The position numbers and the translations under genes are program-made. A DNA stretch of 64,000 bases from Gammaproteobacteria bacterium (lineage in GTDB: Bacteria; Pseudomonadota; Gammaproteobacteria; JACKNK01), in the NCBI GenBank assembly GCA_049604295.1, contig JBMYTL010000004.1:9952-73951 (forward strand). The letters are read 5' to 3'. The notes under the pieces are model-generated. The model worked only from the letters and a program-made list of their open reading frames with translations. It ran no database searches and had not been told where the DNA came from. This document shows positions 1,175-55,957 of the stretch, one piece after another. How positions within the stretch are numbered: position 1 is the stretch's first letter; every line of letters begins with the position of its first letter.

Positions 1175-1176
1175 CG

Positions 1177-5830: not shown

Positions 5831-6202
5831 GTGGCCCTTCCCGATATCAGCGAACTTTCTGTTTCCGAACTCGAGGCACTGGTTGCCGCTTGCAACACCC
5901 AGATCGAGAAACGGCGCAAATCCAAGCGGGCGGAGTTGGCCCGGGAATTCAAAAAACAGGCTGCCGCTGAAGGACTGAGTCTTGACGACATCATGTCTGA
6001 GGGCGAGAAGAAAAAGGCCACGCGCAAAGGCCGGACCGCGAAGGGGAAAGGTCGCGCGAGCAAGCGTAAAGGCATGAAGGTCGCCCCGAAATACGCGAAT
6101 CCGGACGACAGCACACAGACCTGGACCGGTCGGGGACGCAAGCCTGCTTGGGTTGTCGCGGCCCTTGAAGCAGGAAAATCGCTGGATGATCTGCTGATCT
6201 GA
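5831..6202 (+). CDS. hns: H-NS family nucleoid-associated protein
   Basis: The C-terminus TWTGRGRKPAWVVAALEAGKSLDDLLI matches the E. coli H-NS DNA-binding motif [28 protein letters not shown]. There is an N-terminal coiled-coil region and a GTG start behind AGGAGA. Confidence 0.85.
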   Translation: MALPDISELSVSELEALVAACNTQIEKRRKSKRAELAREFKKQAAAEGLSLDDIMSEGEKKKATRKGRTAKGKGRASKRKGMKVAPKYANPDDSTQTWTGRGRKPAWVVAALEAGKSLDDLLI

Positions 6203-7643: not shown

Positions 7644-8864
7644 TTACCCTTCGTCAAGCCCCTTGCCCCGCGATGCCACGGTTTGACGACGCTTTGCGAA
7701 CCACGTTCCCGGCGGCGCGTGATCCCGGAAGTAGCTTCTGAGACCACGCAGGATCGCCTGCGCCATGCGCTTCTGATGTTTTGAAGACCGCAACTTGGCC
7801 TCCTCTGACGGATTCGAGATAAACGCGGTTTCCACAAGCATGGAGGGAATATCCGGAGACTTGAGAACCACGAACGCCGCGCGCTCTACCTGCCTCTTGT
7901 GCACCTTGCCGATACGTTTGAGCTCCGCCAGGACGTCTTTCGCCGCGGAGTGACTGGCCTCGAGGGTTCCGTTCTGGGACAAGTCGAGCAACACCTGCGC
8001 GAGCTGGTCGTCCTTGTCGTCCAGACGCACACCACCAACCAGGTCCGCCTTGTTCTCGTTGACCGCCAACCAGCGCGCCGCCTCTGATGAAGCGCCGCGA
8101 CGCGAAAGTATGTACACCGAAGACCCCCGTGCCCGCGCATCGCGGAAACCGTCGGCATGAATGGACAGGAACAGGTCCGCCTTCGCCTTGCGCGCCCGGT
8201 TTATTCGTGTACGCAACTTGAGAAAGTAGTCGCCGTTGCGGGTCAACACCGCCCGCATACCGGGTTCCCGGTTAATCATTGCCACGAGTTTCCGGGCAAT
8301 GGCCAAAGTGGCGACCTTTTCCTTGGTCCCACGGGGCCCGAGTGCACCGGGGTCAGCGCCTCCATGTCCGGCATCAACCGCGATCACCACCTCCCGCTCG
8401 GCGTTCTCATTGAGCGCCTCGATGCTCTTGACCGCTTTGCGCGTTTCAGACTCGGCACTGCCTCGCTTCGGATACAGATCCACCACGAGGCGGTGCCCGG
8501 ACTTTCCAGAGGGACGCAGGAGGAAGCTCTTCGGGCGTACCTGCCCTTTCAAATCGAGCACAAAGCGAAGATTACTCTGCTTGCGGGGGGCATAACGTAC
8601 GCCCTGGAGCAGGTCACCATGTGGCTTGGGGGAGAACCTTGAGCCTATCCGGGCCCCCGTCAGGTCGAGCACGACCCGGTCAGGCCCCTCGAGGGTGAAC
8701 AGCGTATGCCCCACCGGGGCCGACAACTCGAACACCACCCGCGTGTGATCGCTGTGCGCATAGCTGCGCATCTTGGTCACGCTCGCTGCCGCCATGACCT
8801 GGACGGTCACCAGACCCAGAATCAGTGCGGCGAAAACGGACAGCTTGGCGAGTACGCGGGCCAT
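7644..8864 (-). CDS. N-acetylmuramoyl-L-alanine amidase (AMIN domain + amidase_3; AmiB/AmiC type)
   Basis: Signal peptide MARVLAKLSVFAALILGLV behind an AAGAGG ribosome-binding site. Amidase_3 region (VVIAVDAGHGG...SIHAD). Synteny nnr-tsaE-amidase as in the E. coli yjeF-yjeE-amiB cluster. Confidence 0.8.
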   Translation of the reverse strand: MARVLAKLSVFAALILGLVTVQVMAAASVTKMRSYAHSDHTRVVFELSAPVGHTLFTLEGPDRVVLDLTGARIGSRFSPKPHGDLLQGVRYAPRKQSNLRFVLDLKGQVRPKSFLLRPSGKSGHRLVVDLYPKRGSAESETRKAVKSIEALNENAEREVVIAVDAGHGGADPGALGPRGTKEKVATLAIARKLVAMINREPGMRAVLTRNGDYFLKLRTRINRARKAKADLFLSIHADGFRDARARGSSVYILSRRGASSEAARWLAVNENKADLVGGVRLDDKDDQLAQVLLDLSQNGTLEASHSAAKDVLAELKRIGKVHKRQVERAAFVVLKSPDIPSMLVETAFISNPSEEAKLRSSKHQKRMAQAILRGLRSYFRDHAPPGTWFAKRRQTVASRGKGLDEG

Positions 8865-8982
8865 GATCCTCTTCATTCTGGCGGCGAATGGCTTATCTAT
8901 AGGACACGCGCGGGGCCAAATCAAGTTTTTTCATTAAATTCCGTCAGATAGGGGTCTTTCCTCGAAATCTGATCAGCATTAT

Positions 8983-9504
8983 TCAGTCATTGGCGAGTCT
9001 CAGCGACCGAGCCCTGTCGCTGAGTGGTTCAAGCTCCACCTCGCGTCCATCACCCGAATAGCTGAGCCGAATCCGCAGATCACCTCGCGGCAACAGCCCC
9101 TCTCCTTTCTGGGGCCATTCGACCAGTAGCAGGTGGCTATCGGTCAACAGGTCACGAATACCGAGAAATTCGAGCTCTTCCGGGTCCGCCAGCCGGTACA
9201 GGTCCATGTGAACGATCTTCATCGCGCCCCCGGTATCGCCCCGCCCCTGCGCGGTAAGTTCGTAGGGCTCGACCAAGGTGTACGTGGGACTGCGCACGGG
9301 CCCCTCATGGCCCAATGACTGGATAAGCGCGCGAACCAATGTGGTCTTACCCGCGCCAAGGTCACCCTCCAATCGGACCAGGAAGCCGCCACCCGGCGTC
9401 CCGGCCCCGAGGATGGCAGCACCGAGTTGCTCGCCCAAAGCCCGGGTCCCTTGCTCGTCGTCCAGGGACCACCTGATCACCTCGCTCATTTCAAAGCCAC
9501 TCAT
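8983..9504 (-). CDS. tsaE: tRNA t6A37 threonylcarbamoyladenosine biosynthesis protein TsaE
   Basis: P-loop GDLGAGKTTLVRAL. ATGA start/stop overlap with the upstream nnr gene. Confidence 0.85.
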   Translation of the reverse strand: MSGFEMSEVIRWSLDDEQGTRALGEQLGAAILGAGTPGGGFLVRLEGDLGAGKTTLVRALIQSLGHEGPVRSPTYTLVEPYELTAQGRGDTGGAMKIVHMDLYRLADPEELEFLGIRDLLTDSHLLLVEWPQKGEGLLPRGDLRIRLSYSGDGREVELEPLSDRARSLRLAND

Positions 9505-10982
9505 GCTTCCGGATTAATCACCTGACGCAGCGGCTCAAGCAGGTCGGAAGCGACAAGCCCCCGCTGCCCGGCCCGAGCGGCCATGTCTCCGGCCACGGCA
9601 TGAGCCATCACACCGCTTCGGGCGGCGTGTATCGCCGACATCCCCTGCGCCTTCAAGGCCGAAACAATACCCGTCAGCACATCACCCATACCGCCACTTG
9701 CCATGCCGGGATTTCCCGCCGGGCACACATGCACATCACTGCTCTTTCCACGCACCAGCGAGCCGTTGCCCTTGAGTACGCATACGCCGCCGTAACGCGA
9801 TTGGAGTTCCTGTATGGCACCGAAGCGGTCCGCCTGAACATCCGAAGTGCTCACACCCAGGAGCCGTGCGGCCTCCCCGGGATGCGGGGTGAGAATCCAG
9901 TCCTCGCGCCTCCGCGGCGCACGGGCAAGCAGGTTGAGTGCGCTTGCATCAACCACCAGGGGACGCTCGTCGTCCAGACAACGCTCCAAAAGCCGCTCCG
10001 CGGCCGCGTCCTCACCCAACCCCGGCCCCACCGCAATGAGCGTCGCACGGTCGAAAACACCATCGAGCTGTTCCGGGGCGTCGTGCGCGTAACACATGAG
10101 TTCCGGACGCGCCGCGGTGGTCGCCGCCACATAGTCCCCATGCATGCACACGGACACCAAACCCGCGCCCGCGCGCAGCGCTGCCTCGCCGGCCAAGCGG
10201 GCCGCGCCACCCATGCCGCGGTTGCCTCCCACCACAAGCACGTGTCCAAACATGCCCTTATGCGCATCAAGTCTGCGTACCGCGAGATGATCGGCCAATT
10301 CATCCCGCGTCAACAATTCGGCCCGCGGCTCAACACCGAGATAGACCTGTTCCGGCGCCCCAAGACACTCCAAAACAACCCGTCCGGCACAGGCCGGGCC
10401 CTCGCCCGTATACAGACCAGCCTTGAGACCCACGAAACTGACCGTGCAGCCCGCGCGAATGGCAGCCCCCATGATCTCCCCCGTGTCCGAGTTCAAACCG
10501 GATGGAACATCAAGTGCGAGTACCGGGGTCTGCAGGGCATTGACCGACTCAACAGCCGCGCGCCAGTCACCCTCCACGGGGCGCGTCAATCCCGTTCCGA
10601 GCAGCGCATCGATGATCACGTCAGCATGGACAAGCAGACGATGATCAAAGGGTGTCTCCACCCCCCCGGCCTCTCTATAGGACTGGGCGGCCCGCAGGGC
10701 ATCACCTGCCAGGCGCTCGCGTTCACCCAGGTAGAGCAACTGGCAACGCATGCCGGCCTCGAGGGCCAGGCGTCCGACCACGTAACCGTCGCCGGCGTTA
10801 TTACCTGTCCCGCAAAGGATCACCACCGAGTGGAGGTCCCTCCAACAGCGATTCATGAATCGAAATGCCGCCTCACCGGCGCGCGTCATCAATTGAAAGG
10901 ACGGAACGGCCAGCAAGTCGGCTGCCTTTCGGTCGAACTCCCTGACCTGTTGGGCGCGGTAGAGCATACGGTCGACGTTCAT
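9501..10982 (-). CDS. nnr: bifunctional NAD(P)H-hydrate epimerase/dehydratase Nnr (YjeF N- and C-terminal domains)
   Basis: 493 aa. YjeF_N (CGTGNNAGDGYVV) and the carbohydrate-kinase-like C-terminal domain (GGNRGMGGAA...GDVLTG). Confidence 0.85.
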   Translation of the reverse strand: MNVDRMLYRAQQVREFDRKAADLLAVPSFQLMTRAGEAAFRFMNRCWRDLHSVVILCGTGNNAGDGYVVGRLALEAGMRCQLLYLGERERLAGDALRAAQSYREAGGVETPFDHRLLVHADVIIDALLGTGLTRPVEGDWRAAVESVNALQTPVLALDVPSGLNSDTGEIMGAAIRAGCTVSFVGLKAGLYTGEGPACAGRVVLECLGAPEQVYLGVEPRAELLTRDELADHLAVRRLDAHKGMFGHVLVVGGNRGMGGAARLAGEAALRAGAGLVSVCMHGDYVAATTAARPELMCYAHDAPEQLDGVFDRATLIAVGPGLGEDAAAERLLERCLDDERPLVVDASALNLLARAPRRREDWILTPHPGEAARLLGVSTSDVQADRFGAIQELQSRYGGVCVLKGNGSLVRGKSSDVHVCPAGNPGMASGGMGDVLTGIVSALKAQGMSAIHAARSGVMAHAVAGDMAARAGQRGLVASDLLEPLRQVINPEA

Positions 10983-37999: not shown

Positions 38000-38665
38000 T
38001 CAGGTGCGACGCAGGCCTCTCCACGCAACCAGGCCGCCCAGCATCAAACCCCAGACCGCGGCCGTAGGCACGGTGGAGGACACCGCCTCAAGAGAGCTGA
38101 AATTCGCCGCCGTCAGGTCCTGCCACTGCCCGCCATCCGCTGAGTAGCGCAAGGAGCGCGCACCGTTGCAACAGCTCTCGAACCCGATCCATTCCAAGGT
38201 GTGGACACCGCCCGACAGGCTGAGAACCGAGTTGATGACATCGGCGTTGTTCCAGTCGTAGCCCCACCAGATATCGTCGGAAGTGATGGTGTGCACGGCA
38301 CCATCCACCAGCAATGCCCCACCCCGCCCCCAGTCGGTACCCAACTCGAACTCAAGAACGGTGGCCGCCGCCAGATCCACCTCAAGGCTGATGAAATCCG
38401 CGAGGTCGCTGTTCCCCGACCCGCAGGTCGCTCCGGTATTCACCATCACGAAGGAATCGAGGGACTGTTCGTCGCAATACACGGGGCCACCCGCATCAAA
38501 CGCCGTGTACAGATCAGCGGCGTTCTCCGTCCCGGACACACCATAGGTGCTCCCGCGCACGGAATAAGTGAGTTCGAAGGCCTGCGCGGCACCGCAACTC
38601 AGCGCAGCGGCGAACAACACGGCGGCGATCCGGATCGGTCGGGCGGTCTTCAGGGATGCATCCAT
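38000..38665 (-). CDS. secreted CCXG-motif protein with a PEP-CTERM-like C-terminal sorting signal
   Basis: N-terminal signal peptide (IRIAAVLFAAALSCGAAQA), an internal ESCCNG motif, and a C-terminus VPTAAVWGLMLGGLVAWRGLRRT (a VP-x-x motif, a hydrophobic helix and a basic tail). Encoded between leuC and leuD. Confidence 0.5.
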   Translation of the reverse strand: MDASLKTARPIRIAAVLFAAALSCGAAQAFELTYSVRGSTYGVSGTENAADLYTAFDAGGPVYCDEQSLDSFVMVNTGATCGSGNSDLADFISLEVDLAAATVLEFELGTDWGRGGALLVDGAVHTITSDDIWWGYDWNNADVINSVLSLSGGVHTLEWIGFESCCNGARSLRYSADGGQWQDLTAANFSSLEAVSSTVPTAAVWGLMLGGLVAWRGLRRT

Positions 38666-40418: not shown

Positions 40419-40997
40419 TCAGGCCTCCGATTCCAGCCCCTCGCGTTCCCTTCGCCGTGCCTTGCGTCGTTCGCGCCGCTCGTGAATACGCCGGGTGAAC
40501 CCCAGGCTCCAGCGGTAACCCAACCACCCGGCAAGAATCGCCCACGGAATGGAGCCGATGAACATTGGGGCTCCGAATTCCTGGAACAGGCTGACCACGT
40601 ACACCCACAGGGTCGTCAGCCAGTCCGCTTCGACGGCCTGGGAGGAATTGAGCCTGTCCACGAAGGCCTGGTAGCCGGTGAGCGAGTCCCAGTGACCGGT
40701 CATGACCCGCCCGGTCACCAGAAACAGGTAGTAGATGGGCCCCAGCGTGAAGACGTTGGTTACCCAGGTCCATGCCATGGCGACGACGGCATTGAAGTCC
40801 CACTGGGGTCGTACCGCCTTGAATAACGCCCAAAGCAGAAGGCAGATGGGCATCTGGACCCCGACCGTTGGCGTCATGGCCACGACCAGGCCGACGAGGA
40901 CGCTGCGCGCCAGGTAGTCCGGCGGGTGTTTGCCACGCAGCAACGGCACCACGAGTTTGCGATGGTAGAGGCGCTTGGTGTCGTGCCAGATTGCCAT
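40419..40997 (-). CDS. DUF2062-family membrane protein
   Basis: 192 aa, about 4 TM helices and a basic C-terminal tail. The family call is from pattern memory. Confidence 0.5.
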   Translation of the reverse strand: MAIWHDTKRLYHRKLVVPLLRGKHPPDYLARSVLVGLVVAMTPTVGVQMPICLLLWALFKAVRPQWDFNAVVAMAWTWVTNVFTLGPIYYLFLVTGRVMTGHWDSLTGYQAFVDRLNSSQAVEADWLTTLWVYVVSLFQEFGAPMFIGSIPWAILAGWLGYRWSLGFTRRIHERRERRKARRREREGLESEA

Positions 40998-44931: not shown

Positions 44932-47900
44932 TCAACGCCCGAGGTCCAGGGTCAACGGGACGCCGGCGAGGGGCACCACGAGAAGCCCCGTGTTATCCGC
45001 GCTCAACGGTTCCCGCTGACCGGAAACCGACACCTGGGTACCCGGCAACAGCCCCATGACATAGAGGGTCTGCTGATCACCCGGCGGAGTGACCTGTATG
45101 CGCTGGTCCATACGATCCGCGGCATACACGATGGAGAACCCCGTGCTGAACCCGGACCCTTTGCCACCGGCCGGGGTGTACGCGGTGACCGGAGCGGTGC
45201 GCGGTGCCACCAGCCCCGGCGACAGAACAACCAGGAAACGGTCCGAGGCTCGTGCGGCCCCCGGTTGGATCTCCAGGCGCCATTGGGGTTGATCGAACCA
45301 ACGCCGCCCCGAGTGACCCTGCGCGAAAATCTCGCCGTCGATATCGCTGTCGTCGCCGTCTGATTCCACGTAGAAGCGGTGGTTCGGACCGCCCACGAGC
45401 CGCATCACCGCGTCACGGGGAGCGATCCGGTCCACCACCAGGCTGCCCCGGTCGTTGAGCACCAGCGCCCGGGCCGAATCGCTCTCCAGCACCCCGTCAT
45501 CAACCGTACCCGCCAATACCCGGGGCGCGCTCACCACCGGCTTGGTCATGGTGTGCAGCAGCCACTTCTTGGTGTAACCGGGCTGCACCGCATCCACCTG
45601 GTCATGAACCACCAGTCGGTCTTCACCGATCAGATAAAGCAGACCGCGGCGCACGCGGTAGACACGGCCCTCCCCCCCCTGGCTGTCGAAACGACTGGTG
45701 TCGTAAGCGTCGGTCAGATCCATGGCGACATGGACGTAGCTACCCGGCCGATAGCTGCGTCCCTCGATCCGACCGCCCTCGTAATGGAGTCCGGCCCCCA
45801 ACTCGGAGCGCCAGTGGTCCACCGAATCCAGCCAACTCCCCGTGGGAATCACCAGGCGCTGCCCCCCATCGGCCACGTTCTTGGTGAACAGGTGCGTTGG
45901 GCGGACGTCATCCCCCTTGCGCAGGATGAGAAGACTGTTCTTGGCCACGGTACGAACGCCGAAGTACAGGCGATTGGGTGTTGAAACGCCCGCGTAGGAA
46001 CTGGCGTTGACGGCAAGCGGGGTGCCCTTGAAGAGTGTGAAGTGACCGGCATCGTAGTGCCCGTGGTGGCTCATGGCCGCGCCCGCGCGGAAACTGATGA
46101 ATGTGTCATCGTCTTTCCAGCCGCTGCGCATGAATCCCAGATTCATGGCCCCGGGACCGAACAGTTCGACCTCGGGCAGCCAATGCCCCATGCCTTGCAG
46201 GGAGCCCGGCTCCACACCCGGCACCCCGAGGTCGTCCGGGTCCTGCAGCAGGGGCTGGGCCCAACGGTAGTTCTTGTAGTAACCGGAGGCCCCGTAGCGC
46301 TTGTCGAGGTAACGGGACAGGCTCACCAACTCCGGTTGGCCCGTGAGGACGTTGATCAGGTCGACCACCCGTTGAGTCTCGTCCTTCATGTCCACGCGCG
46401 GCCCCTCGTCGCCCCACCCCTGCACGTTACCGTCGGGACGCAGCGCATAAAGGTGCAACAGGCCGATGCGCCGCAGCGTGGCCATGATGGCGGGGTGACG
46501 CTCGGAATCGGTCACGCCGTTGAGGAAACCACCCATGGCCAGGATCAGGTTGAAGGCCCGTGAATTGATCCAGTAGTTGTAACCACCGGGCCAGGCCTCA
46601 GCGATGCTGATGGCCTCGAGAGCGATGAGAAAATGACGCTGCGCCTCGGTGACCCGTTGTTGATAACCCGGTCGCCCCTGTTCCAGGGCGAGCGCGACCA
46701 GCCAGGCATTGGCCGCCAGGGTCGTACGCCCGTGCCAGAGGGAGGGGCCACTGTCGGCGAGCACGCTGAGATAGGCATCAAGCGACTGTTCCAGGCGCCC
46801 CTGAACGAGGTCCACCGTGGCGGTATCCATGTCCGGGTGCAGGCTGAGCAGGTCGTAGGCAAAGGCCATGCGGCCACCGTTGCCGTATCGGTTGCCGCCG
46901 TCGGGCAGTTCGGGCTGCATCTCACGCAGTCGGCGCACCGCCTCCGAGCCACGGGCGGAATCACCACTGACCAGCCAACAGGCGATATCGAACTCCAGGT
47001 TCGAATGGGCACAGGGGTCGCGGAACGGCCTCTTCAACTCCGCGGCACGTTGGGCACGACCCGCGAACAACGGTGGAACACCCACTCCGTCCCAATTTGC
47101 CAACGACGGGAACAGGATGCGCGGATGCAGGCCACGGATACGCCCTTCGAACACGTGGGGCAGTGGCGCCTGCGCGTGCCGGGTCACCCCCGCATCGACC
47201 CGGTTCATGAGCGAGGACAGCGGTGTACTGGCAGGCCCGATCAACACCCCCACGGCGAGCAACACCCCCATCAATGCCGCGGCGGTCAATGGCTCTCCCA
47301 CCCCCGGCGCACGCCGCCCGGCCAGCGCCGCCGTCGGCGCATCGGGCCAGGTGCTGAACCAGGTCCGTGCAAGCCGCCAACCCGCGCCCAACAGCGCTGC
47401 CGCACCGACCTGGAAAATGCTCCAACGCAGCACCAGTTCGGCGATGGAGGGTGTGCTCTCGCGGTTGGCACTGAGCATGAAATTCACGCCCTGCTGCGTA
47501 AGGCCGGTATTGATGCTCAGCCAACCCGCCGCGACCAGCAGGGGCAGACTCAGCACGGCCACGCCCACCCCCAGAACCCCGCAGCCGAAACCGCAGGCGA
47601 GCACGATGCCATGGGCCGTGATCAGCGCGATGGTCATGCCAATGCCCCACAGGGCAACCCACGAACCCTCGCGGTACAGCAGTTCGATCACGTTGTCGGT
47701 AACCGCCTGGTCCACCACCACCCACTGGCCGTACAGGAACAGCGGAAGCGCCGCGAGCAGCATCAGGGCGAGCCGTCCGCTCCCCTGCCGCAACCCAAGC
47801 CGACGGTTCGAGGCCAGCCAGTAACTCCAGGCCATGGGAATGAGTAACAGGGGCACCGCGAATCCGGAGAACCGGTAGCTGCGCTCGAGAAACACCGGCC

Positions 47901-49785
47901 AGCCGAGCTTCGACGAACCCAGGATATCGTTGAGACTTTCACCGGTAACCGTCTTCTCCAGCAAGATCCAAACGGGCAACCACACGGCCAGGTAAACCAG
48001 GGGCAGGGCCAGCAGCAGGATGGGACGTTGGCGGGCCAGCCATTGCCCCGCCGCGGCAGGCAGGGTGGCCGCCGCGAGCAGGAACAGCGGGAAGCTCAGA
48101 TACCGGTAGCCCCCCCCTCCGCCGAACAACTCGCGCACGTTGTACGGCACCTGCGGAAAACGCATGACGAACCACAGCAGCACCGCAATGGCGAGAACAC
48201 CGACACCACAGGCCACCAGGACACCCATCCGTATCCGCGCGGGATCCGGTTCGCGAGCGGTATTGCCTGGACCGGCTGCCCCCTCGGGCGGCAGCCCATC
48301 AGCCGCCGAACGTCCGCGTCCATCCGTTTTCGGCATGGGCGTACTGATGGTGTCCTCCACCACCTGACCGTGCCGCGAGCCCGAGCGTTTCCGCGAGCGC
48401 TGATCCGCGTGTTCCCCACGCGGTGGTCCTTTGATATCCGCACCGGGTGTGCCGGGCGGCTGGGGGGACAGGTTGACCGGCAGGGTCGCCGGATCGACCT
48501 CGGGTTGCGGCACCATGATCTCGCGTGCGAACCGGGGCACCGCAGCGATGGCCGAGCGTCGGCGTTTCTTCCCCTGTCGGGGCACAAACAGCCAACCCAG
48601 TGCCAGGGCGCCGATCCCGGCCAATAACAGCGGGCCACCGAGGGCCCAGCGCAACAGGGCAAGCACCATCACCAGCAGCACGCTGATGATCAGCACCGCC
48701 AGACGCAACTCACGGCGATCCAGCCAGGATCGCAGCAGGGGCACCACCATGAGCAGCGGCGCATAGGCCTCCAATGCAGCCCCCGCAAGTACCAGCAGGC
48801 GTTGATCCGAACCCAACAGCGGTGGCGGAAAATCCACGACCGCCCGCAGGTGTGAGTGATCCACCATCCAGCCCAATGCAGCAAGCACAAGGCCCGCCAT
48901 TACGAGCACCAGGTGCAGGGGCGACGCCGATGCGGGCACACGGCCCAGGACCAGGCTGAGCGCGGTTCCGACCCCCGCGCCGACAAGAAACTCCAGGCTC
49001 AGTCCGCGGCCGGGCATGACCCATAAAGCCAGCGCGGCAACGACCGGCAATGCCAGGACAGGAAGAAGTCGTCGTTGCAACAACAAACCCGCCCCGAACC
49101 AGCCGGCGGCCACCCATACGGTTGAGTACAGATTGAAGCCTCCGTCCAGCAGCGGCGCCAATCCCTGCACGAGCATATTGCGCGAGAGTTCGAGATGCCC
49201 CGGCAGCACCCAGGCACCGACCCACAGGGCCACCAGCACCCAGGCCGGTTGCAGTTCGTCGAGCAACATCAGGCCCGCACGCCCCTGGGGAAGGGTGACC
49301 GCCAGTGCCCCGGCAAGGGCCCCAAATGCGGCCCCGCCACTCATCAGGATGGCATCCCAAAGGGATGCATTCCGACCGGGAATCCACCACTGCAGTATCT
49401 CGGTACCAAAGGCGACCAGTAGCAGCGGTACCAGTCCGCCCACCATCGCCTCGATGACATTCCAATCGCGACCGCGCAGCCACACCGCGAACAGAAATGC
49501 CGCGGGCGTGGGTAACAGGAAATTCTCCACCAGGTCGCGCAGGCGCGATCCCTCGAGCGCGAAGAAGGCGGCAAAATCCGGCCCCTGGGGCTGCGACCAA
49601 CTGAACGCACCCAACAACAACCACGCCGTGATCACGGTGCCGGCAATGGCCAGAGGCAATGCCAGGGCGAACGCGGTTTGGTTGCTGGTGGTGCGACTCA
49701 TGGAGGGCTTACCGGGGTGCCCCGTGGGCGCAGGCCCCGGTAGGCCGACGGGCGCCCCCGAATCCGTGCCGGCCATCCATGCCAC
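44932..49785 (-). CDS. giant polytopic membrane protein: N-terminal VanZ-like domain, two TM blocks, and a C-terminal periplasmic alginate-lyase/heparinase-II/III-like domain
   Basis: A 4854-nt uninterrupted ORF with a GTG start. VanZ-type motif GTEILQWWIPGRNASLWDAILMSGGAAFG. About 10 hydrophobic helices (aa ~30-420), a Pro/Arg-rich charged linker (aa ~420-520), about 9 more helices (aa ~520-860), then WHGRTTLAANAW...YNYWINSRA (alpha/alpha-toroid-like) and AMSHHGHYDAGHFTLFKG (heparinase II/III H-x-H-x-D-x-x-H-F signature). Opposite-strand ORFs are Arg/Pro-rich artefacts. Confidence 0.7.
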   Translation of the reverse strand: MAWMAGTDSGAPVGLPGPAPTGHPGKPSMSRTTSNQTAFALALPLAIAGTVITAWLLLGAFSWSQPQGPDFAAFFALEGSRLRDLVENFLLPTPAAFLFAVWLRGRDWNVIEAMVGGLVPLLLVAFGTEILQWWIPGRNASLWDAILMSGGAAFGALAGALAVTLPQGRAGLMLLDELQPAWVLVALWVGAWVLPGHLELSRNMLVQGLAPLLDGGFNLYSTVWVAAGWFGAGLLLQRRLLPVLALPVVAALALWVMPGRGLSLEFLVGAGVGTALSLVLGRVPASASPLHLVLVMAGLVLAALGWMVDHSHLRAVVDFPPPLLGSDQRLLVLAGAALEAYAPLLMVVPLLRSWLDRRELRLAVLIISVLLVMVLALLRWALGGPLLLAGIGALALGWLFVPRQGKKRRRSAIAAVPRFAREIMVPQPEVDPATLPVNLSPQPPGTPGADIKGPPRGEHADQRSRKRSGSRHGQVVEDTISTPMPKTDGRGRSAADGLPPEGAAGPGNTAREPDPARIRMGVLVACGVGVLAIAVLLWFVMRFPQVPYNVRELFGGGGGYRYLSFPLFLLAAATLPAAAGQWLARQRPILLLALPLVYLAVWLPVWILLEKTVTGESLNDILGSSKLGWPVFLERSYRFSGFAVPLLLIPMAWSYWLASNRRLGLRQGSGRLALMLLAALPLFLYGQWVVVDQAVTDNVIELLYREGSWVALWGIGMTIALITAHGIVLACGFGCGVLGVGVAVLSLPLLVAAGWLSINTGLTQQGVNFMLSANRESTPSIAELVLRWSIFQVGAAALLGAGWRLARTWFSTWPDAPTAALAGRRAPGVGEPLTAAALMGVLLAVGVLIGPASTPLSSLMNRVDAGVTRHAQAPLPHVFEGRIRGLHPRILFPSLANWDGVGVPPLFAGRAQRAAELKRPFRDPCAHSNLEFDIACWLVSGDSARGSEAVRRLREMQPELPDGGNRYGNGGRMAFAYDLLSLHPDMDTATVDLVQGRLEQSLDAYLSVLADSGPSLWHGRTTLAANAWLVALALEQGRPGYQQRVTEAQRHFLIALEAISIAEAWPGGYNYWINSRAFNLILAMGGFLNGVTDSERHPAIMATLRRIGLLHLYALRPDGNVQGWGDEGPRVDMKDETQRVVDLINVLTGQPELVSLSRYLDKRYGASGYYKNYRWAQPLLQDPDDLGVPGVEPGSLQGMGHWLPEVELFGPGAMNLGFMRSGWKDDDTFISFRAGAAMSHHGHYDAGHFTLFKGTPLAVNASSYAGVSTPNRLYFGVRTVAKNSLLILRKGDDVRPTHLFTKNVADGGQRLVIPTGSWLDSVDHWRSELGAGLHYEGGRIEGRSYRPGSYVHVAMDLTDAYDTSRFDSQGGEGRVYRVRRGLLYLIGEDRLVVHDQVDAVQPGYTKKWLLHTMTKPVVSAPRVLAGTVDDGVLESDSARALVLNDRGSLVVDRIAPRDAVMRLVGGPNHRFYVESDGDDSDIDGEIFAQGHSGRRWFDQPQWRLEIQPGAARASDRFLVVLSPGLVAPRTAPVTAYTPAGGKGSGFSTGFSIVYAADRMDQRIQVTPPGDQQTLYVMGLLPGTQVSVSGQREPLSADNTGLLVVPLAGVPLTLDLGR

Positions 49786-49797
49786 AGTCTGACTTCA

Positions 49798-51388
49798 TCA
49801 ACGGACGCCGTGCTCACGGGTGCTGCGGAACCGGACGTCCGGCCAGCGCTCCTCGGTAAGCGACAGGTTGACCCGCGTGGGCGCGATGTAGACCAGCTCA
49901 TTGGCATGGTCATAGCCAAGGTTCTCCTCCGCCTTGTCGCGAAACTGCTCCAGCATGCGCTCATCGTCGCACTCCACCCAGCGCGCCGTCGCCACATTCA
50001 CCGGCTCGAAGATGCAGTCCACGCCGTACTCGTCCTTCAGGCGATAGGCCGCCACGTCGAACTGCAGGATACCGACGGCACCCACGATGAGGTCGTTGTT
50101 GATCATGGGCCGGAACAACTGCGTCGCGCCCTCCTCACAGAGCTGTTGCAGTCCCTTGAGCAATTGCTTCGACTTGAGCGGATTCTTGATCTGGGCGCGG
50201 CGGAACAATTCGGGCGCGAAGTTGGGGATGCCGGTGAATTGCAGGTCTTCGCCCAGTGTGAAGGTGTCACCGATGTTCACCCCACCGTGGCTGTGGATGC
50301 CGATGATATCGCCGGGGTAGGCCTCGTCCACCGAGCCACGTCCCGCGGCCATGAAGGTGAGCGCCTCGGGAATCTTGATGTCCCGCTTGAGCCGGACGTG
50401 GCGTGCCTTCATACCCTTCTCGTATTTTCCGGAACACACCCGCACGAAGGCCACACGATCGCGGTGCTGGGGGTCCATGTTTGCCTGGATCTTGAATACG
50501 AAGCCCGAGAACTTCTCCTCGTTGGCCTCCACCGAGCGCGTGGTGGTGGCGTGGGCCTTGGGCGCCGGGGCGTGCTCGACAAAATCGCGCAACAGCTCCT
50601 CAACCCCGAAGTTGCGCAGCGCCGAGCCGAAGTAGACCGGCGAGAGCCTGCCCTCCAGGTACGCCCGCGGGTCGAATTCATGGCTCGCCCCGCGAACCAG
50701 TTCCACCTCGTCGCGCAGATCATCGGCCATATCGCCGATACGGGTATCAAGATCGGGGTTGTCGATTCCCTTGATAATCTCGACCTTGGGCGGACGACCG
50801 TCCTCCTCGGCGATGGTGAACAGGTACACCTCGTCCCGGTACAGGTGATAGACGCCCTTGAAGGACTTGCCCATGCCCACGGGCCAGGTGACCGGGGCGC
50901 ACTGGATCTTCATCACGTCCTCGATCTCGTCCATCAGCTCGATGGGATCGCGGGCCTCGCGGTCCATCTTGTTGACGAAGGTGAAGACCGGGGTGTCACG
51001 CATGCGACACACCTCCATGAGCTTGAGGGTGCGTTCCTCAACGCCCTTCGCCGCATCGACGACCATCAGGGCGGAATCCACGGCCGTCAGCACGCGGTAG
51101 GTATCCTCGGAGAAATCGGCGTGTCCGGGGGTATCGAGGAGGTTCACCACGCGGTCGTTGTAGATGAACTGCATGACCGAGGATGTCACGGAGATCCCGC
51201 GCTCCTTCTCCAGCTCCATCCAGTCCGAGGTGGCGTGGCGCGCGGCCTTCTTGGCCTTGACCGTGCCGGCCAACTGGATGGCCCCCCCGAACAGGAGCAG
51301 TTTCTCGGTAATCGTTGTCTTACCGGCATCCGGGTGCGAAACAATGGCAAAGGTGCGGCGGCGCGCGGTTTCCTGGGCGTGACTGGGC
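49798..51388 (-). CDS. prfC: peptide chain release factor 3
   Basis: GTPase G1 [11 protein letters not shown] behind [16 protein letters not shown]. The start is set at the internal ATG (51388); the 63-aa upstream extension in the track is Arg/Pro-rich. Confidence 0.85.
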
Positions 51389-51580
51389 ATCGAGTGTCTG
51401 GATCGGTCGGCGTGGGTCGCGGGGGGTGGCGGATTATATCGGGGATGGCACCGCGTCGCCGGATGGTCTTCACCCGGATTGTTCATACCCGCGATGCGGG
51501 CACGCGGTAGACTCCAACCGCACTTCGGATCAACCCTCCGCGCCGCCCGAGCCGCACCACCCGACCGACCGGAAGACACA

Positions 51581-52573
51581 GTGTTCCTAGGCTATATCCA
51601 CTATTTCCGGGCCCTCGCCATCCTGTTCATCGTGGCGGGGCACTCCATCGATGCGCTGGTCTGGAACGACAACCCGCTCACCGGCGACCTGCTGCGCATC
51701 TACATATCCAACGGCAGCACCCTGTTCGTGTTCATCGCCGGGTACCTGTTTCAGCACCTGGGGCACAAATTCAGTGCCGGTCGTTATTACCGGGCAAAGC
51801 TCAAGAACGTCATCCTCCCCTACCTGCTGGTGTCGATCCCGGCCATCGTCGTGTTCACGGTGTTCACCGAGCGGGAGATCGTACCCGCCGGTCTCTATGA
51901 CCAACCGGTATGGATGCAGGTGCTGATGTTTTACGCCACCGGCCGCCACCTCACCCCCCTGTGGTTCGTGCCGATGATCACGCTCTTCTACCTCGTAGGG
52001 CCGCTGCTGATCCGCGCCGATCGCGATACACGCATCTATTACGGCCTGCCGGTATTCATGCTGATCTCCTGCCTGAATGCCCGTGGCCTGCCCTATGAGA
52101 GCTTCGTGCATTTCTTCTCCGTCTACCTGTTGGGTATGTGGGCCAGCCACTACAAGGAGCGGCTCAATCCCCTGATCAGCGGCCTGCCCTTTCTGCTCGT
52201 CGCCGCCGTGTTGATCAACGCCTTCGCCGTCTCCGAGCTGGTGTTCATGGAATCCACCATGACCTGGCTGAACTACCTGCAGAAGACGACCCTTTCACTG
52301 TTTTTCCTGGGGCTGTTCTACCGCTTCAACGAACACCTGGATTCACCGTTCGTCAGTTACGTCGCCGATGTGAGTTTCGGCGTGTTCTTCATCCACTCCT
52401 ACTTCCTTACCGCCAACAAGATGGCGTACACGCACCTCACCGGCACCCTGCCCGAGGGCAATCTGTTCATCTATGTACCGGTGGCCCTGGTCACGCTGTT
52501 CGCCTGCGTGCTCATGATCCACATCATCAAGAAGCTGACCGGGCGCCACAGCCGTATGCTGGTCGGGAGCTGA
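51581..52573 (+). CDS. acyltransferase-3 family membrane protein
   Basis: GTG start behind GGAAGA. N-terminal [17 protein letters not shown] (the R..A...V..H motif of acyltransferase 3) and about 10 TM helices. Confidence 0.5.
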
Positions 52574-52597: not shown

Positions 52598-54167
52598 TCA
52601 AGGGTCCGATAGAGCGGTATTGATGCGCCCAAGCAGTTGGGTCTTCAGCGGTTCCGGAACATCCGCGGCGCGTAATGCATCGCGGTATCCGCGCAAGAGG
52701 TGCCCGTCCCCCAATTCTTCCGCCGCCCTCACGGCCACCCACCAGGCCTGGGGATTGGTCGGACCGTGGTTGAGTGCCAACTCGGCATACCCCCGCGCCT
52801 CGTGAAAATATCCCGCGCGCAGAAACTGCACCGCGCGCTCCAGTTCGTGCGCCACGTAACGGGGGTCACGGCTGAGTTGGACCAGAAAGGACGGGCGTGC
52901 CTCAATGGCCGGCGTCCAGGGGTTACGCAGACCGATGACGGCAATGACGAGCCCCCAGAGCACCACAAGCCACATGCCGATACGTACTGCCGGGCGCAGT
53001 GCGCGGATACGCGCCCAGGGCACGTTGAAGAGCGCGTACAACGCCAGGGGCACCAACAACACATGCCAGCGGTTGCCATAGGCATGGCCGGACTGGTTGT
53101 TGCTGAACGCGATGGTGAGGGCGAAGAACAGCCCCAGGGTGCTGAGCACGATCCATGTCGCACGTGGGCGCCCCGCACGCAGCGCCAACAGACCGATCAG
53201 CGTCACGCTGTTGAAGACGAAGAAGCCGTGATGGCCCAGGAGGCTGTCGAAGCCATAGTTCAGGAACGCCCCGACACTGTCGTGTTTGACCCCCACCCCG
53301 GTGAGGATATGGGCATCGTGCTGCGAGCCCGGGTAGTTGAAGTGCTCCGGGTTCAGATTCACCGCCAGGGGGTTGCCAGCGATGGCCCAGGACAGCCCCC
53401 CATGCACGAGCACCGGCAGTGCCGCCCCCGCCAGCGCCGCGAGCGTGCTGCGCCGTGCGGCCCACAGGTCCGGCGCCATCCAGGCGAGATAGGCCAGCGC
53501 GAAGGTGACCACCAGGGGGTCGATGACCAGCGCCAGGCCCAGAATCAGCCCCAGCCCGAAACCGGGCATCGCGCCTCTGGCGCGGTCTGTATCCGGTGCC
53601 ACCCGGTCCCAGAACAGCAGCAGCAGGGCCGCCGCCACGATGTGGGCATTGAGTGCCGTCGCGAACACGCCCACCTGGCTGGCCGCCGGCAGCACGATCG
53701 CCAAGGTGGCGGCCGCGACAGGTGGCCATTGCGATGCCAGGGCCCGGCGCATGAAAACGGCCGCGACAAGCAGGAACGACAGCCCCGATGTGGCGACCAC
53801 CAGCAGGGAGTGGATCGCGGGCAGGTCCGCGCTCCAATTCCATCCCAGCACGCTCTGCATGACGGCCAGGAACGCCGCGTAGAACAGGGACAGGACGGGC
53901 GGCTTGTCGGAATAGTAATGCCCCGCCACCAGGATCCGGTCGCAGGTGTAGTTGAAGCGGCTGTGATCGATGCTCAGGCTGCCGTGATTGACCAGGGCAT
54001 CGGCTGCCGCCAGACGCGAAGTATCGTGACAGGGGCCCGGAAGGTCCCGGGCCAGCCAGACCAACAGCGACACACACACCAGCAGGGCCAGCAGCGGCAC
54101 CCCGGACCGCGGGTGCGTTGCGTTTCCGCGCCGGGTGTCGGGAGCTGCTGTGTCTGCGCTTTTCATG
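52598..54167 (-). CDS. GT-C fold glycosyltransferase (ArnT/PMT_2, GT83-like) with a C-terminal TPR-like tail
   Basis: Polytopic membrane protein with the first-loop motif HYYSDKPPVLSLFYAA (the Y-x-x-KPP-l motif of ArnT/PMT families). Start at the internal ATG 54167 (MKSADTAAP), which avoids overlap with the divergent ushA-like gene. The upstream 120-aa extension is Cys/Arg/Gly junk. Confidence 0.65.
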
Positions 54168-54310
54168 GACGCGCAGTGTTCCAGTTCCGGGCGTCCGCCG
54201 CATCCACCGCGGCACATTCGACGGCATCGGGTCGACGCCGAGGCGACGTTGTCGCATCGATCCGATAGCCTCGGGGGGTATGGCCCATTCCAACCACAAG
54301 GATTCATGCG

Positions 54311-55957
54311 ATGTCCCGGTCGACCCTGTCGAGTGCCTGCCTCACCCTGGCACTGCTCGCCCCACTCACACTGCCCGAGGCGCACGCGGCCGGCACGGCA
54401 ACATTGCTGACCGTCAACGACGTCTACCGGATCTCCGGCATCGAAGACGGTCGCCGTGGTGGAATCGCCCGACTGCGCACCCTGCGCGCCAACCTCGAGG
54501 CCCAGGGCACGGACCCGGTCCTCCTGCATGCGGGCGATTTCCTGTTTCCGTCACTGCTCAGCCGTCGTTATCGGGGGGAGCAGATGATCGACCTGCTCAA
54601 CCGCCTGGACGGCGACGCCAGCGCATTCGATGAGCGCCTGTTCATCACCTTCGGCAACCACGAATTCGACAAATCCCGACGCAGGGACGCGTCCATGCTG
54701 CGCCAGCGGATCCGGGAATCGGACTTCCGCTGGCTCAATGCCAACGTGCTCTTTGCCCGGGATGAGTCCAACCGCCCGATGATCAGTGCATCCAACCTTA
54801 TGGCGCACACGCTTATCGAGAGCGGTGGGGTCCGCGTGGGCCTGTTCGCGCTCACCACGGATGTGAAGGCCGCCGAGTACATCGAGCGCTTCGCCGAGCC
54901 CGAACCCACGGCGGCGCTGATGACCGCCCTGCTGCGCCAGCAGGGCGCCGACGTGGTGGTGGCCCTGACGCACCTGCGCGCCGAACGGGACGAGGCCCTG
55001 CTACGTGCCCTGGGCGACGCGGGCCCCGATCTGATCGTGGGCGGGCACGAACACGAACGCCAGGTGCACCTTGCCGGTGGGCACAGACGGGTAATAAAAG
55101 CGGATGCGGATGCCGTCACGGCGGCCGTGATCCGTGTGCACGTGGATGACTCGGGTGGCGTCCGGATCAGCCATGAGTTCATCGCTCTGGATGAATCCGT
55201 CTCACCCGCGCCTGACGTTGCCGCCCGTGCGCACCATTGGCAGGAGCGCTACGAGCGGGAGACCTGTGCCGAACAGGGCGAGCGCGCGGATTGTCTGAGC
55301 GAACCGCTCGGCCACACCCGCGTGAAACTGATTGCCGAGGAACTGGAGATCCGACGCTACGAGACCAACCTGGGGAACTTCGTCATTGACCAGGGACTCG
55401 CCGCGTTCGCCGACCAGGGGGCCCAGGCCGCCATCATCAACTCGGGCAGCCTGCGTCTGAACCAGAATATTCCAGCCGGTGCCGCGCTGACCCAGCGCAC
55501 CCTCGGCGAGCTGTTCGCCTACCCGAGCCCCATGTCACTGATCCGCATCGACGGACGCACGCTGCGGGCGGTATTGGCCCATGCCATCACCGATTGGACG
55601 GGTAACGGACGCTGGCTGCAGATCGCGGGCTTCGCGTGGCGCCACGACCCCACAACCGCAACCGCTACCGATATCACCCTCCTGAGTGATGACGGCCCCC
55701 GACCGATCAAAGACGAGGAGTCGATACTCATGGTCGTCAATGACTACCTTCTGGACCCATCGGGCGACCAGGACGGTTACACCATGCTCGGCCCTCAGCT
55801 ACGGGTGCCCAGCGGTCGCGCCGCACCGGACCTGCGGGACCTGGTGGCGGCAGCCCTGCGCGCATCCGGTGAGCGCGGCATCGCCCCGCGAATAGAGGGA
55901 CGCATCTGCACCGTGAGCCGCGAAGGCCCCTGCCTGGCCGTCAGCGCGGCGGACTGA
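54311..55957 (+). CDS. periplasmic bifunctional metallophosphatase / 5'-nucleotidase (UshA-like)
   Basis: Signal peptide, calcineurin-like phosphoesterase motifs (GDFLFPS, GNHEFD, GGHEHE) and a C-terminal 5'-nucleotidase substrate-binding domain. Confidence 0.75.
   Translation: MSRSTLSSACLTLALLAPLTLPEAHAAGTATLLTVNDVYRISGIEDGRRGGIARLRTLRANLEAQGTDPVLLHAGDFLFPSLLSRRYRGEQMIDLLNRLDGDASAFDERLFITFGNHEFDKSRRRDASMLRQRIRESDFRWLNANVLFARDESNRPMISASNLMAHTLIESGGVRVGLFALTTDVKAAEYIERFAEPEPTAALMTALLRQQGADVVVALTHLRAERDEALLRALGDAGPDLIVGGHEHERQVHLAGGHRRVIKADADAVTAAVIRVHVDDSGGVRISHEFIALDESVSPAPDVAARAHHWQERYERETCAEQGERADCLSEPLGHTRVKLIAEELEIRRYETNLGNFVIDQGLAAFADQGAQAAIINSGSLRLNQNIPAGAALTQRTLGELFAYPSPMSLIRIDGRTLRAVLAHAITDWTGNGRWLQIAGFAWRHDPTTATATDITLLSDDGPRPIKDEESILMVVNDYLLDPSGDQDGYTMLGPQLRVPSGRAAPDLRDLVAAALRASGERGIAPRIEGRICTVSREGPCLAVSAAD

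Follow-up and report, generated by a model that had tools for sequence, protein, structure and literature searches.

A VanZ-type, an eight-helix and a heparinase-II-like module in one inner-membrane protein: a candidate for processing of lipid-linked exopolysaccharide

The stretch of DNA analyzed here, referred to as the window, is 64 kb long and carries on its minus strand a gene for a large inner-membrane protein that combines a VanZ-type domain, a conserved polytopic membrane domain and a heparinase-II-like domain. The three modules are predicted to face the periplasm together, and we propose that the protein cuts, or epimerizes, a uronate exopolysaccharide and hydrolyzes the remnant linked to undecaprenyl diphosphate, a reading to which we assign a probability of about 0.5. 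A preliminary description of the same DNA had suggested a membrane-embedded machine for envelope-glycan processing which matched no characterized enzyme; this suggestion was strengthened by orthologous fusions found inside exosortase-A loci and by the periplasmic position of the conserved motifs.

The gene and its heparinase-II-like domain

One stop-free frame of 1617 codons plus stop spans positions 44932..49785 of the minus strand, uninterrupted as previously described, with a GC3 of 0.63-0.90 over its entire length, similar to that of the neighboring genes. The product is very probably shorter than the 1617 amino acids originally proposed. NCBI annotates a "hypothetical protein" of 1589 aa (MGB0721083.1) starting at ATG 49701 (M29), and in a relative with 72-76% identity the gene begins at the equivalent methionine, 6 codons downstream of an in-frame stop. 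Hence, ATG 49701 is very probably the true start and 1589 aa the true length. Codons 1-28 of the longest frame (49702..49785, minus strand) are not conserved in the relative, where a stop breaks them, and are probably an untranslated 5' leader. The upstream neighbor is prfC, encoding release factor 3 (49798..51390, minus strand), which lies on the same strand as had been noted; the reported distance of 12 bp has to be replaced by 96 nt, counted from ATG 49701. A scan of the region between both genes revealed no promoter-like or terminator-like site. Linkage of prfC to a gene of the HepC family was seen again in two other lineages.

The C-terminal module consists of an alpha/alpha-toroid half (aa 861-1185; 46231..47205, minus strand) and of beta-sandwich and C-terminal beta domains (aa 1186-1617; 44935..46230, minus strand), the latter assigned by phmmer and profile matches to heparinase II (HepII) and by Pfam. 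The toroid contains the motifs WHGR with H1018 (46726-46737, minus strand) and YNYW with Y1071 (46570-46581, minus strand) and an invariant cysteine pair, C925/C936; the beta-sandwich part contains HHGH with H1241 and H1243 (46057-46068, minus strand). All motifs quoted in the preliminary description were found in the protein, namely GTEILQWWIPGRNASLWDAILMSGGAAFG (aa 127-155), GGGGYRYLSFPLFLL, WHGRTTLAANAW, YNYWINSRA, and HHGHYDAGHFTLFKG.

An AlphaFold2 (AF2) model of this module reached a pLDDT of 89 and a pTM of 0.90. Foldseek returned heparinase II as top match (E 1e-33, TM 0.63-0.66), followed by PL15, PL17, and PL33 lyases and dermatan-sulfate (DS) epimerase 1. Relationship to HepII was also detected by phmmer (E 2.4e-12) and by a profile search against the PDB (E 2e-38), the latter settling the homology. 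The Pfam match to Hepar_II_III_C was marginal: at a cut-off of 24, the entire protein scored 21.1 bits and the isolated domain 24.4 bits. The toroid and the Hepar_II_III-type domain recognized earlier were both confirmed.

The module has the toroid, beta-sandwich and C-terminal beta fold of heparinase II (HepB, CAZy PL21, Pedobacter heparinus), of the PL15 enzyme Atu3025 and of PL17 alginate lyases, with the catalytic His, Tyr, and His at aligned positions and an identity of only 19-20%. H1018 and Y1071 align to H311 and Y365 of Atu3025, H1241 and H1243 to H406 and H408 of HepII, and across 53 relatives each of these four residues is either invariant or conserved to at least 90%. The HepII zinc site H408/D425/H451 reads H, N, K here, two of the three ligands being replaced (D425 to N, H451 to K), and the NCBIfam HepB equivalog NF045571 gave 62-64 bits, a tenth of its cut-off of 600; on these grounds an identity as HepB orthologue was ruled out. 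Judged from model and alignment, the C-terminal module is a heparinase-II fold with the catalytic His/Tyr/His and without the HepII zinc site. Further differences from the known lyases are its tether to the inner membrane and the biosynthetic, not catabolic, context of its family.

The most likely activity of such a domain is predicted to be cleavage of an acidic exopolysaccharide. As the same catalytic triad serves epimerases, the residues fit a lyase and an epimerase alike, and a rather unlikely alternative is that the domain is a uronate C5-epimerase acting at the polymer level, by which nascent exopolysaccharide would be modified at the membrane and left uncut. The fold search gave a significant match to human DS-epimerase 1 (6hzn; E 3e-16), which uses the same His/Tyr/His residues as the lyases; the toroid of a permuted relative (P0164) carries the precomputed Pfam name "DSE-like_N", and the gene family is found in biosynthetic, not catabolic, loci. 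Lyases, however, score far better, HepII reaching the E-values of 1e-33 (fold) and 2e-38 (sequence level) given above.

The membrane part

The N-terminal module is a VanZ-type Lipocone domain of four transmembrane (TM) helices (aa 42-165; 49291..49662, minus strand), assigned by Pfam and profile homology and by conservation, and modeled with a pLDDT of about 90. The VanZ similarity claimed at the outset was thus detected, although the Pfam VanZ score of the window protein (28.1-29.0 bits) stayed just under the cut-off of 30.1; 54 of 60 family relatives passed it, with a best E-value of 1.7e-38. The polar residues D84, N88, E129, Q132, R138, and D144 are all located at periplasmic helix ends. 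Position 129 is occupied by E or Q across the family; the others are conserved to 95-100% in 55-70 sequences (D84, N88, Q132, and D144 to 98-100%) and retained in the window protein. The polar signature of helices 2-4 of VanZ-1-like Lipocone domains, an N in H2, ExxQ in H3, and an Asp in H4, is thus present.

A family profile aligned with VanZ-A of Enterococcus faecium at 36.9 bits and placed N88, E129, Q132, and D144 opposite N57, E92, Q95, and D107. No more than two of the published catalytic residues H87, E128, D143, and D147, the Glu and the first of the Asp residues, could be matched on the 161-aa VanZ-A sequence used for this mapping, onto which the published numbering does not map. The equivalents of VanZ-A D104 and N111 are missing; S141 and M148 stand at these positions, so that the VanZ domain of the window protein may, judged from its sequence, be a weak or altered catalyst. 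Some family-conserved residues of this domain and of the following helices have been lost in the window lineage, for example at M148, W306, A376, and R379.

Eight further TM helices, termed N2, follow (aa 166-405; 48571..49290, minus strand) and always accompany this VanZ subtype. They lead into a cytoplasmic linker (aa 406-514; 48244..48570, minus strand) which, in agreement with the Pro/Arg-rich linker noted previously, is rich in Arg, Pro, and Gly, contains 19 Lys and Arg residues and is disordered (pLDDT <50). The close relative also has the linker, with lower conservation; that of distant relatives is far shorter.

The second membrane domain, block M (aa 515-815; 47341..48243, minus strand), was delimited by family search, conservation, and model. 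The membrane helices had been described as two polytopic blocks; helices are indeed present, and they are better divided into a VanZ-associated helix block and this distinct, conserved domain of eight TM helices. A search with the membrane part yielded 285 representative clusters, most of them matching block M, either stand-alone or fused. The VanZ and membrane-block part constitutes a widespread family. Block M occurs almost only together with VanZ and is an obligate partner of this VanZ subtype. Its periplasmic motifs are PYNVRELF, ESLxDIxGS...ExxxRF, TDNxxEL, and FxL..R; about 20 polar residues are 95-100% conserved in 55-70 sequences and kept in the window protein, and invariant acidic and Arg residues cluster on the outer face of a confident model (pLDDT about 95).

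Block M had no match among Pfam or NCBIfam models and no fold match in the PDB, and profile-profile comparisons with the O-antigen-ligase-like domain that occurs in relatives (see below), with the N2 helices, and with VanZ were all negative. Membership of the window protein in the O-antigen ligase/Wzy_C group was rejected, as Pfam gave no Wzy_C match and block M and N2, compared by hhalign with the alignment of the ligase-like domain, reached probabilities of at most 1.1%. Block M is a previously undescribed and unannotated family. As it has no known relative, any role assigned to it is a guess; it might bind or handle either the substrate on its lipid or the carrier lipid once freed.

A short cytoplasmic loop and one anchoring TM helix (aa 816-860; 47206..47340, minus strand), seen in the model, connect block M to the toroid and correspond to the anchor with which stand-alone relatives of the C-terminal domain begin; in these, one TM helix comes after a positively charged N-terminus. 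The AF2 model contains 12 + 8 + 1 = 21 TM helices, not the about 19 estimated earlier. The heparinase-like domain is placed in the periplasm by helix parity with the K/R-rich linker as starting point, by the N-termini of the stand-alone relatives, and by the invariant Cys pair, and the conserved polar motifs of all three modules fall on the periplasmic face. These relatives, themselves TM-anchored, do not agree with the view that heparinase-II/III-like domains are normally soluble or secreted. Likewise, VanZ domains, described earlier as normally small stand-alone proteins, are frequently fused to other modules (PMC12419801).

The VanZ domain, N2, and block M might also form a catalytically inert anchor, regulatory or sensor module, leaving the heparinase-like domain as sole enzyme, an AlgL-like periplasmic housekeeping lyase. 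We regard this as unlikely. One TM helix suffices for the stand-alone relatives, the window lineage has lost the family-conserved residues named above, and VanZ domains take sensor positions in some systems (PMC12419801); against this reading stand the strict conservation and retention of D84, N88, Q132, R138, D144, and the polar residues of block M. Furthermore, VanZ-M, ligase-like, and heparinase-like domains have been fused repeatedly and in differing orders, a pattern more in line with modules that act jointly as catalysts on a single substrate than with anchoring.

Relatives and genomic context

Members of the C-terminal family usually stand alone, as proteins of about 815 aa with a TM anchor. 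In 11 of the loci listed, the family is fused to an O-antigen-ligase-like domain, and about 9 further loci have a gene for such a domain next to it or nearby; VanZ-M, too, occurs fused to this ligase-like domain or beside it. The full architecture of the window protein was found in at least four assemblies, in addition to one permuted form, the M-VanZ-heparinase-like protein P0164. It is thus rare, not unique. In Plasticicumulans acidivorans DSM 23606 it is encoded by a stop-to-stop ORF of 1607 codons (1601 aa from the first start), in a Competibacteraceae MAG by one of 1590 codons (1554 aa from the first start). A neighbor-joining tree of the C-terminal domain, drawn without support values, hints that the fusions arose more than once. 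Scanning of metagenomes with a narrow block M alignment yielded 80 VanZ-M loci, none with a heparinase-like partner, and the coupling is therefore considered lineage-restricted.

A word-indexed protein search with the full-length query gave no matches, an outcome that we put down to a candidate list filled up by hydrophobic low-complexity words; queries with the separate parts gave matches. BLAST revealed no similarity between the membrane part of the window protein and that of P0027 or the gene upstream of the latter; the membrane part of P0027 proved to be different, an O-antigen-ligase-like domain. NCBIfam holds no model for the C-terminal family, for this ligase-like domain or for block M, and literature searches that paired heparinase with VanZ, PEP-CTERM or exosortase turned up no relevant work.

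The fusions of Plasticicumulans and of the Competibacteraceae MAG are located inside exosortase-A (XrtA)/PEP-CTERM exopolysaccharide loci. The Plasticicumulans gene is flanked on one side by genes for a TIGR03100 hydrolase, GT2, Wzx, GT2, and GT4 and on the other by TIGR03099, TIGR03098, and TIGR03694. A neighborhood of the TIGR03098-03101 type surrounds the orthologous fusions L057 and L067, many stand-alone relatives lie inside such loci, and marker genes of the exosortase-A system were present in 31 of the 64 C-terminal-family loci that are at least 12 kb long. The window copy differs: it is situated next to prfC, outside any exopolysaccharide locus, and the 64-kb window contains neither exosortase-A markers nor a ligase-like gene. 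A CCXG PEP-CTERM protein is encoded 6 kb away within the window.

Catabolic lyases are the nearest solved structures, and a nutritional lyase for foreign glycosaminoglycan or alginate was considered; this reading is very improbable and was rejected, as the neighbors of the gene are housekeeping genes with no transporter, sugar-catabolism or regulator gene nearby, orthologues lie inside exopolysaccharide synthesis loci, the domain has a tether in the inner membrane and fusion partners of the carrier-lipid and ligase-like kinds, and the HepB equivalog scored 64 bits against 600. Least probable, and likewise rejected, is an artefact of assembly or sequencing, or a decaying fusion of adjacent genes: the source is a MAG, the unstructured linker has a lower GC3 and long chance ORFs arise in high-GC DNA, but the independent assembly GCA_049604855.1 (72-76% identity) has junctions of identical layout, with one contig carrying N2-linker-M-anchor-toroid unbroken and a second carrying prfC-VanZ; the architecture recurs in distant orthologues, and all catalytic-type residues are kept. 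The gene is thus real, and its orthologues are found fused, not consistently split into three genes.

Proposed function and its significance

For the activities, the substrate, and the division of labor we infer the following. The joint substrate would be an undecaprenyl-diphosphate-linked exopolysaccharide made by a Wzx/Wzy system of the exosortase-A/PEP-CTERM type. The His/Tyr/His of the C-terminal domain would abstract the C5 proton of a uronic acid and, by beta-elimination, detach or shorten the polymer; the VanZ-type domain is predicted to hydrolyze the undecaprenyl-diphosphate-linked glycan and so to clear the lipid-linked remnant, allowing the carrier to be recycled. Such a reaction may take part in the normal release of the polymer, in setting its chain length or in quality control.

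The VanZ-type domain shares with VanZ, Llp1, and YfiM, members of the Lipocone superfamily of lipid-linked-oligosaccharide pyrophosphatases, the four-helix core and, as predicted active-site residues, polar positions at the outer face; the window protein adds eight helices, block M, and the lyase-fold domain. To our knowledge, the VanZ-containing family is the only one so far shown to hydrolyze lipid-linked oligosaccharides. Yeast Llp1 and Escherichia coli YfiM hydrolyze the diphosphate of lipid-linked oligosaccharides, and the same was proposed for VanZ (bioRxiv 10.64898/2026.09.16.752124). For VanZ proteins, a role on head groups of lipid-linked exopolysaccharide was predicted and a linkage to WaaL-like genes described, and the association with exopolysaccharide and WaaL-like genes observed here matches that described for VanZ-1 (PMC12419801).

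Lyases and hydrolases are built into several exopolysaccharide pathways, as exemplified by AlgL of alginate synthesis, PslG, PelA, and BcsZ. The protein family resembles these enzymes in that a predicted periplasmic polymer-cleaving enzyme is encoded alongside synthesis and export machinery. It differs from AlgL (PL5) in fold, in the pathway, which is of the Wzx/Wzy type and not synthase-dependent, and in its fusion to membrane modules directed at the carrier lipid.

A more far-reaching and unlikely version is that VanZ-M and the heparinase-like domain, together with the ligase-like partner, provide a missing release-and-recycle step of exopolysaccharide synthesis of the Wzx/Wzy type. The finished polymer would be cut by the lyase, leaving a short stub on the lipid whose diphosphate would then be hydrolyzed by the VanZ domain, and block M, as a new handler or translocase of undecaprenyl phosphate, would return the carrier to the cytoplasmic face.

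Two unannotated families were defined in this work: a membrane-anchored heparinase-II-like clade of exosortase-A loci, and block M, a confidently modeled domain with invariant acidic residues on its outer face and without counterpart in Pfam, NCBIfam or the PDB. Terminal transferases or releasing enzymes are unidentified for several polymers (PMC12419801), and both the detachment of Wzx/Wzy-type capsules and exopolysaccharides from undecaprenyl diphosphate and the clearing of stalled lipid-linked intermediates are largely open questions. The protein family physically joins a uronate-directed lyase/epimerase fold, a VanZ-type module and a ligase/polymerase-like domain in several independent orders; this linkage makes it a concrete, testable candidate for the release step, and with Plasticicumulans acidivorans DSM 23606 a cultured host exists.

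Anatomy of the fusion protein

The fusion gene (44932-49785, minus strand) encodes a VanZ-type four-helix domain (residues 42-165 in the numbering of the 1617-codon ORF), eight further helices (N2, 166-405), a disordered Arg/Pro/Gly-rich linker with 19 Lys and Arg residues (406-514), the eight-helix block M (515-815), a short loop with Arg-Arg followed by a single anchor helix (816-860), and a soluble domain (861-1617). The structure model contained 12 + 8 + 1 transmembrane (TM) helices instead of the roughly 19 counted previously. Topology was obtained by counting helices outward from the linker, which was assumed to be cytoplasmic. Counted this way, the N-terminus would be cytoplasmic and the C-terminal domain periplasmic; all conserved polar motifs of VanZ and block M would lie at periplasmic helix ends or in periplasmic loops. 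A periplasmic C-terminal domain is consistent with its stand-alone relatives, whose N-terminus is rich in Lys and Arg and leads into a single TM helix, and with the Cys pair C925/C936, invariant in this family. Almost certainly, the gene encodes a real three-module membrane protein facing the periplasm.

The C-terminal domain matched heparinase II in a phmmer search (E = 2.4e-12); a profile of 53 relatives matched heparinase II with E = 2e-38 and the PL15 lyase Atu3025 with E = 3e-6. The AlphaFold model of this domain was confident (pLDDT 89, pTM 0.90), its top PDB match being heparinase II (E = 1e-33, TM ~0.65), followed by PL15, exo-heparinase, PL17, PL33, GAG lyases, heparinase III, and human dermatan-sulfate epimerase 1. 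In profile alignments, the WHGR His (H1018) corresponds to Atu3025 H311 and the second Tyr of YNYW (Y1071) to Y365; H1241 and H1243 of HHGH align with HepII H406 and H408. Each of these four is either invariant or conserved in at least 90% of the family. Of the three HepII zinc ligands, two have been substituted, with N1260 at the position of D425 and K1282, which is conserved across the family, at that of H451. Identity as a HepB orthologue was rejected, the equivalog model scoring one tenth of its cut-off. Because the catalytic residues are kept, two zinc ligands are replaced, and the equivalog score is low, the domain is, judged by its sequence, a distinct heparinase-II-fold clade with an intact C5-proton-abstraction apparatus. 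A lyase cannot be separated from an epimerase by sequence here, and the domain may be the latter; an epimerase does stand among the structural matches, behind heparinase II and several lyases.

Pfam VanZ scored 28.1-29.0 bits on the fusion protein against a cut-off of 30.1 that 54 of 60 longer block M-bearing relatives pass (E as low as 1.7e-38). The profile of the family's VanZ part matched Enterococcus faecium VanZ-A with 36.9 bits, aligning N88, E129, Q132, and D144 with N57, E92, Q95, and D107, but VanZ-A D104 and N111 are S141 and M148 in the fusion protein. Across the family to which this VanZ part belongs, conservation of D84, N88, Q132, R138, and D144 reaches 97-100%. An inert anchor or sensor role for VanZ-M (VanZ-N2 plus block M) is unlikely in view of this conservation; the two substitutions may make VanZ a weak or altered catalyst. 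VanZ has been placed in the Lipocone superfamily, predicted to act on head groups of flipped polyprenyl-linked glycans, and VanZ-1 is associated with exopolysaccharide genes including those of WaaL-like ligases (Burroughs et al., PMC12419801). The VanZ-family yeast protein Llp1 and Escherichia coli YfiM were reported to be lipid-linked-oligosaccharide pyrophosphatases, and the same activity was proposed for VanZ (Li et al., bioRxiv 10.64898/2026.09.16.752124).

Module combinations and genomic context

An exhaustive HMMER search with residues 1-860 yielded 285 representative clusters, mostly matching residues ~515-815. Block M (~300 aa) occurs by itself, after VanZ-N2 (the common form, with 740-800 aa), before VanZ, or split between adjacent genes. 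The C-terminal family was found in Gamma- and Betaproteobacteria (Chromatiales, Competibacteraceae, Methylococcales, Sedimenticola, Zooshikella, Colwellia, Halieaceae, Nitrosomonas, Thiobacillus), with best identities to the window copy of 51-53%. Profiles were mapped onto 89 loci for comparison of architectures. Most C-terminal-family proteins stand alone (~815 aa); 11 listed loci encode 1250-1720-aa fusions with an O-antigen-ligase-like membrane domain N-terminal to the heparinase-like domain (e.g., Allochromatium palmeri, Thiocystis violacea, Thiorhodococcus, Sedimenticola selenatireducens, Thiobacillus), and in about nine more a ligase-like gene adjoins or lies near a stand-alone heparinase-like gene. 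Fusions of the window type are encoded by Plasticicumulans acidivorans DSM 23606 and a Competibacteraceae MAG (1601 and 1554 aa, respectively, counted from the first start) and also by GCA_049604855.1; the relative P0164 has the order M-VanZ-toroid-sandwich. VanZ-M is also fused to the ligase-like domain (P0123, P0124, L168) or adjoins it (L009). Every possible pair of the VanZ-M, heparinase-like, and ligase-like modules is thus found joined, as is typical of components that act in one pathway.

The VanZ-M/heparinase-like fusion probably arose more than once, because the window block M resembles the P0123/P0125 type more closely than that of Plasticicumulans, the C-terminal domain is nearest to a stand-alone, prfC-linked Chromatiales gene, and a neighbor-joining tree without support values did not group it with the Competibacteraceae (L057) and Plasticicumulans (L067) fusions. 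One contig (L005) carries two heparinase-like paralogues, a ligase-like fusion (1485 aa; 942-5396, minus strand) and a stand-alone copy (7962-10574, plus strand). The latter begins within the end of a DsbA-like thioredoxin gene, as would fit a periplasmic domain with a disulfide bond. Two MAGs carry heparinase-like genes disrupted across several frames (L083, 9785-11736; L084, 8611-11255), which are either pseudogenes or assembly frameshifts.

The Plasticicumulans fusion gene is preceded by genes for exosortase-A-associated hydrolase 1 (TIGR03100), GT2, a MOP/Wzx flippase, GT2, and GT4, and followed by an exosortase-A-associated PLP decarboxylase (TIGR03099), acyl-CoA ligase (TIGR03098), and acyltransferase (TIGR03694). 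This gene set also surrounds stand-alone relatives and the Competibacteraceae fusion, and among the 64 C-terminal-family loci with a length of 12 kb or more, one or more exosortase-A-system markers occur in 31. Permuted P0164 neighbors Trypsin_2, ScmC, NTP_transf_5, and a Polysacc_synt flippase, gene types also present in marker-bearing loci of stand-alone relatives. A catabolic lyase is very improbable in view of this context. The 64-kb window itself has no exosortase-A-system marker genes of that kind. There, the neighbors are MoeA, a FecCD/ABC pair, prfC, acyltransferase-3, a TPR membrane protein, 5'-nucleotidase, RmuC, and PBP1B. Since the window encodes a secreted 221-aa CCXG-family PEP-CTERM protein (38000-38665, minus strand; NCBIfam 125 bits, cut-off 90), we infer that the host has an exosortase sorting system.

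In Plasticicumulans (locus L067 on NZ_QGTJ01000003, locus positions 1297-6193), GC3 of the GT2-Wzx-GT2-GT4 block just upstream of the fusion gene is 0.30-0.43 versus ~0.75 around it, which suggests a horizontally acquired glycan-specificity cassette within the exosortase-A locus. One metagenomic lineage has VanZ-M lacking a heparinase-like partner, with a right-handed beta-helix protein gene upstream on the same strand and ATP-sulfurylase/APS-kinase, UDP-glucose dehydrogenase, and PEP-CTERM genes nearby, again an acidic-glycan context. At its loci (L121, L130, L131, L135, L146, L149, L150, L160, L166), VanZ-M lies downstream of pilMNOPQ-aroK and is followed by a 347-aa uncharacterized protein and the bifunctional ATP-sulfurylase/APS-kinase, hinting at a sulfated glycan.

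Within the window, a polytopic membrane protein of 643 aa whose C-terminal part is TPR-like (52598-54529, minus strand) had no significant Pfam/NCBIfam match; its 'YYSDKPP' motif is reminiscent of GT-C (ArnT/PMT-like) glycosyltransferases, and its first ~130 codons look non-genuine. A DUF2062 membrane protein gene (40422-40997, minus strand) adjoins leuC.

Reading frame and translation start

The preliminary description was right about the stop-free frame of 1617 sense codons, prfC directly upstream on the same strand, and every quoted motif, all found in the translation. The product is probably shorter than the 1617 aa described: NCBI MGB0721083.1, a 'hypothetical protein' from a Gammaproteobacteria MAG (96.9-kb contig), is the exact 1589-aa product from ATG 49701 (Met29). 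In GCA_049604855.1, the closest relative, prfC is followed after 103 nt by the orthologue, which starts at the Met equivalent to Met29; an in-frame stop lies six codons before it, and the spacer lacks similarity to that of the window. Because of these starts and the upstream stop, codons 1-28 of the ORF probably belong to the leader, which puts 96 nt, not 12 bp, between prfC and the gene. An artefactual ORF is very improbable given orthologues with the same architecture and a GC3 of 0.63-0.90 along its whole length, similar to prfC, leuB, leuC, and the PBP gene. Several long antisense frames inside the fusion gene, e.g., 46633-47847 (plus strand), are chance ORFs of a window rich in GC.

The maximal prfC ORF (49798-51579; 593 aa) is ~64 codons longer than the ~529-aa prfC of related loci. 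Because its 5' extension (51391-51579, minus strand) overlaps the start of a divergent Acyl_transf_3 gene (glycan O-acyltransferase type; 51479-52573, plus strand), the true start probably lies near 51390. A heparinase-like-family gene directly follows prfC in three lineages (window; L002/L010 and L090): the window, its 72-76% identical relative, and a Chromatiales MAG with a stand-alone gene (51% identity). Linkage of this gene family to a translation factor is conserved in these lineages.

Proposed function and novelty

We favor, with a probability of about 0.6, action of the fusion protein on the lipid-linked acidic exopolysaccharide of an exosortase-A type pathway. Repeat units would be assembled on undecaprenyl diphosphate, flipped by Wzx, and polymerized at the outer face, where a short tether would hold a uronate-directed lyase (or epimerase) near the Lipocone and block M sites, which would open to that same face. 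The simplest scheme, which we consider rather doubtful in detail, is that the lyase severs or trims the lipid-linked polymer, VanZ hydrolyzes the diphosphate of the leftover lipid-linked stub or of stalled intermediates, and the carrier is recycled.

The soluble and VanZ parts each belong to known superfamilies, and published work has already linked VanZ to exopolysaccharide genes and WaaL-like ligases. No family model covers the heparinase-II-like clade or block M, our literature search (heparinase with VanZ, PEP-CTERM, exosortase) turned up no paper on the membrane-anchored clade or its fusions, and NCBI annotates only a hypothetical protein. Block M as a domain family, the heparinase-II-like clade that is membrane-anchored and belongs to exosortase-A loci, and the repeated joining of this clade to ligase-like and VanZ modules all appear to have gone undescribed.
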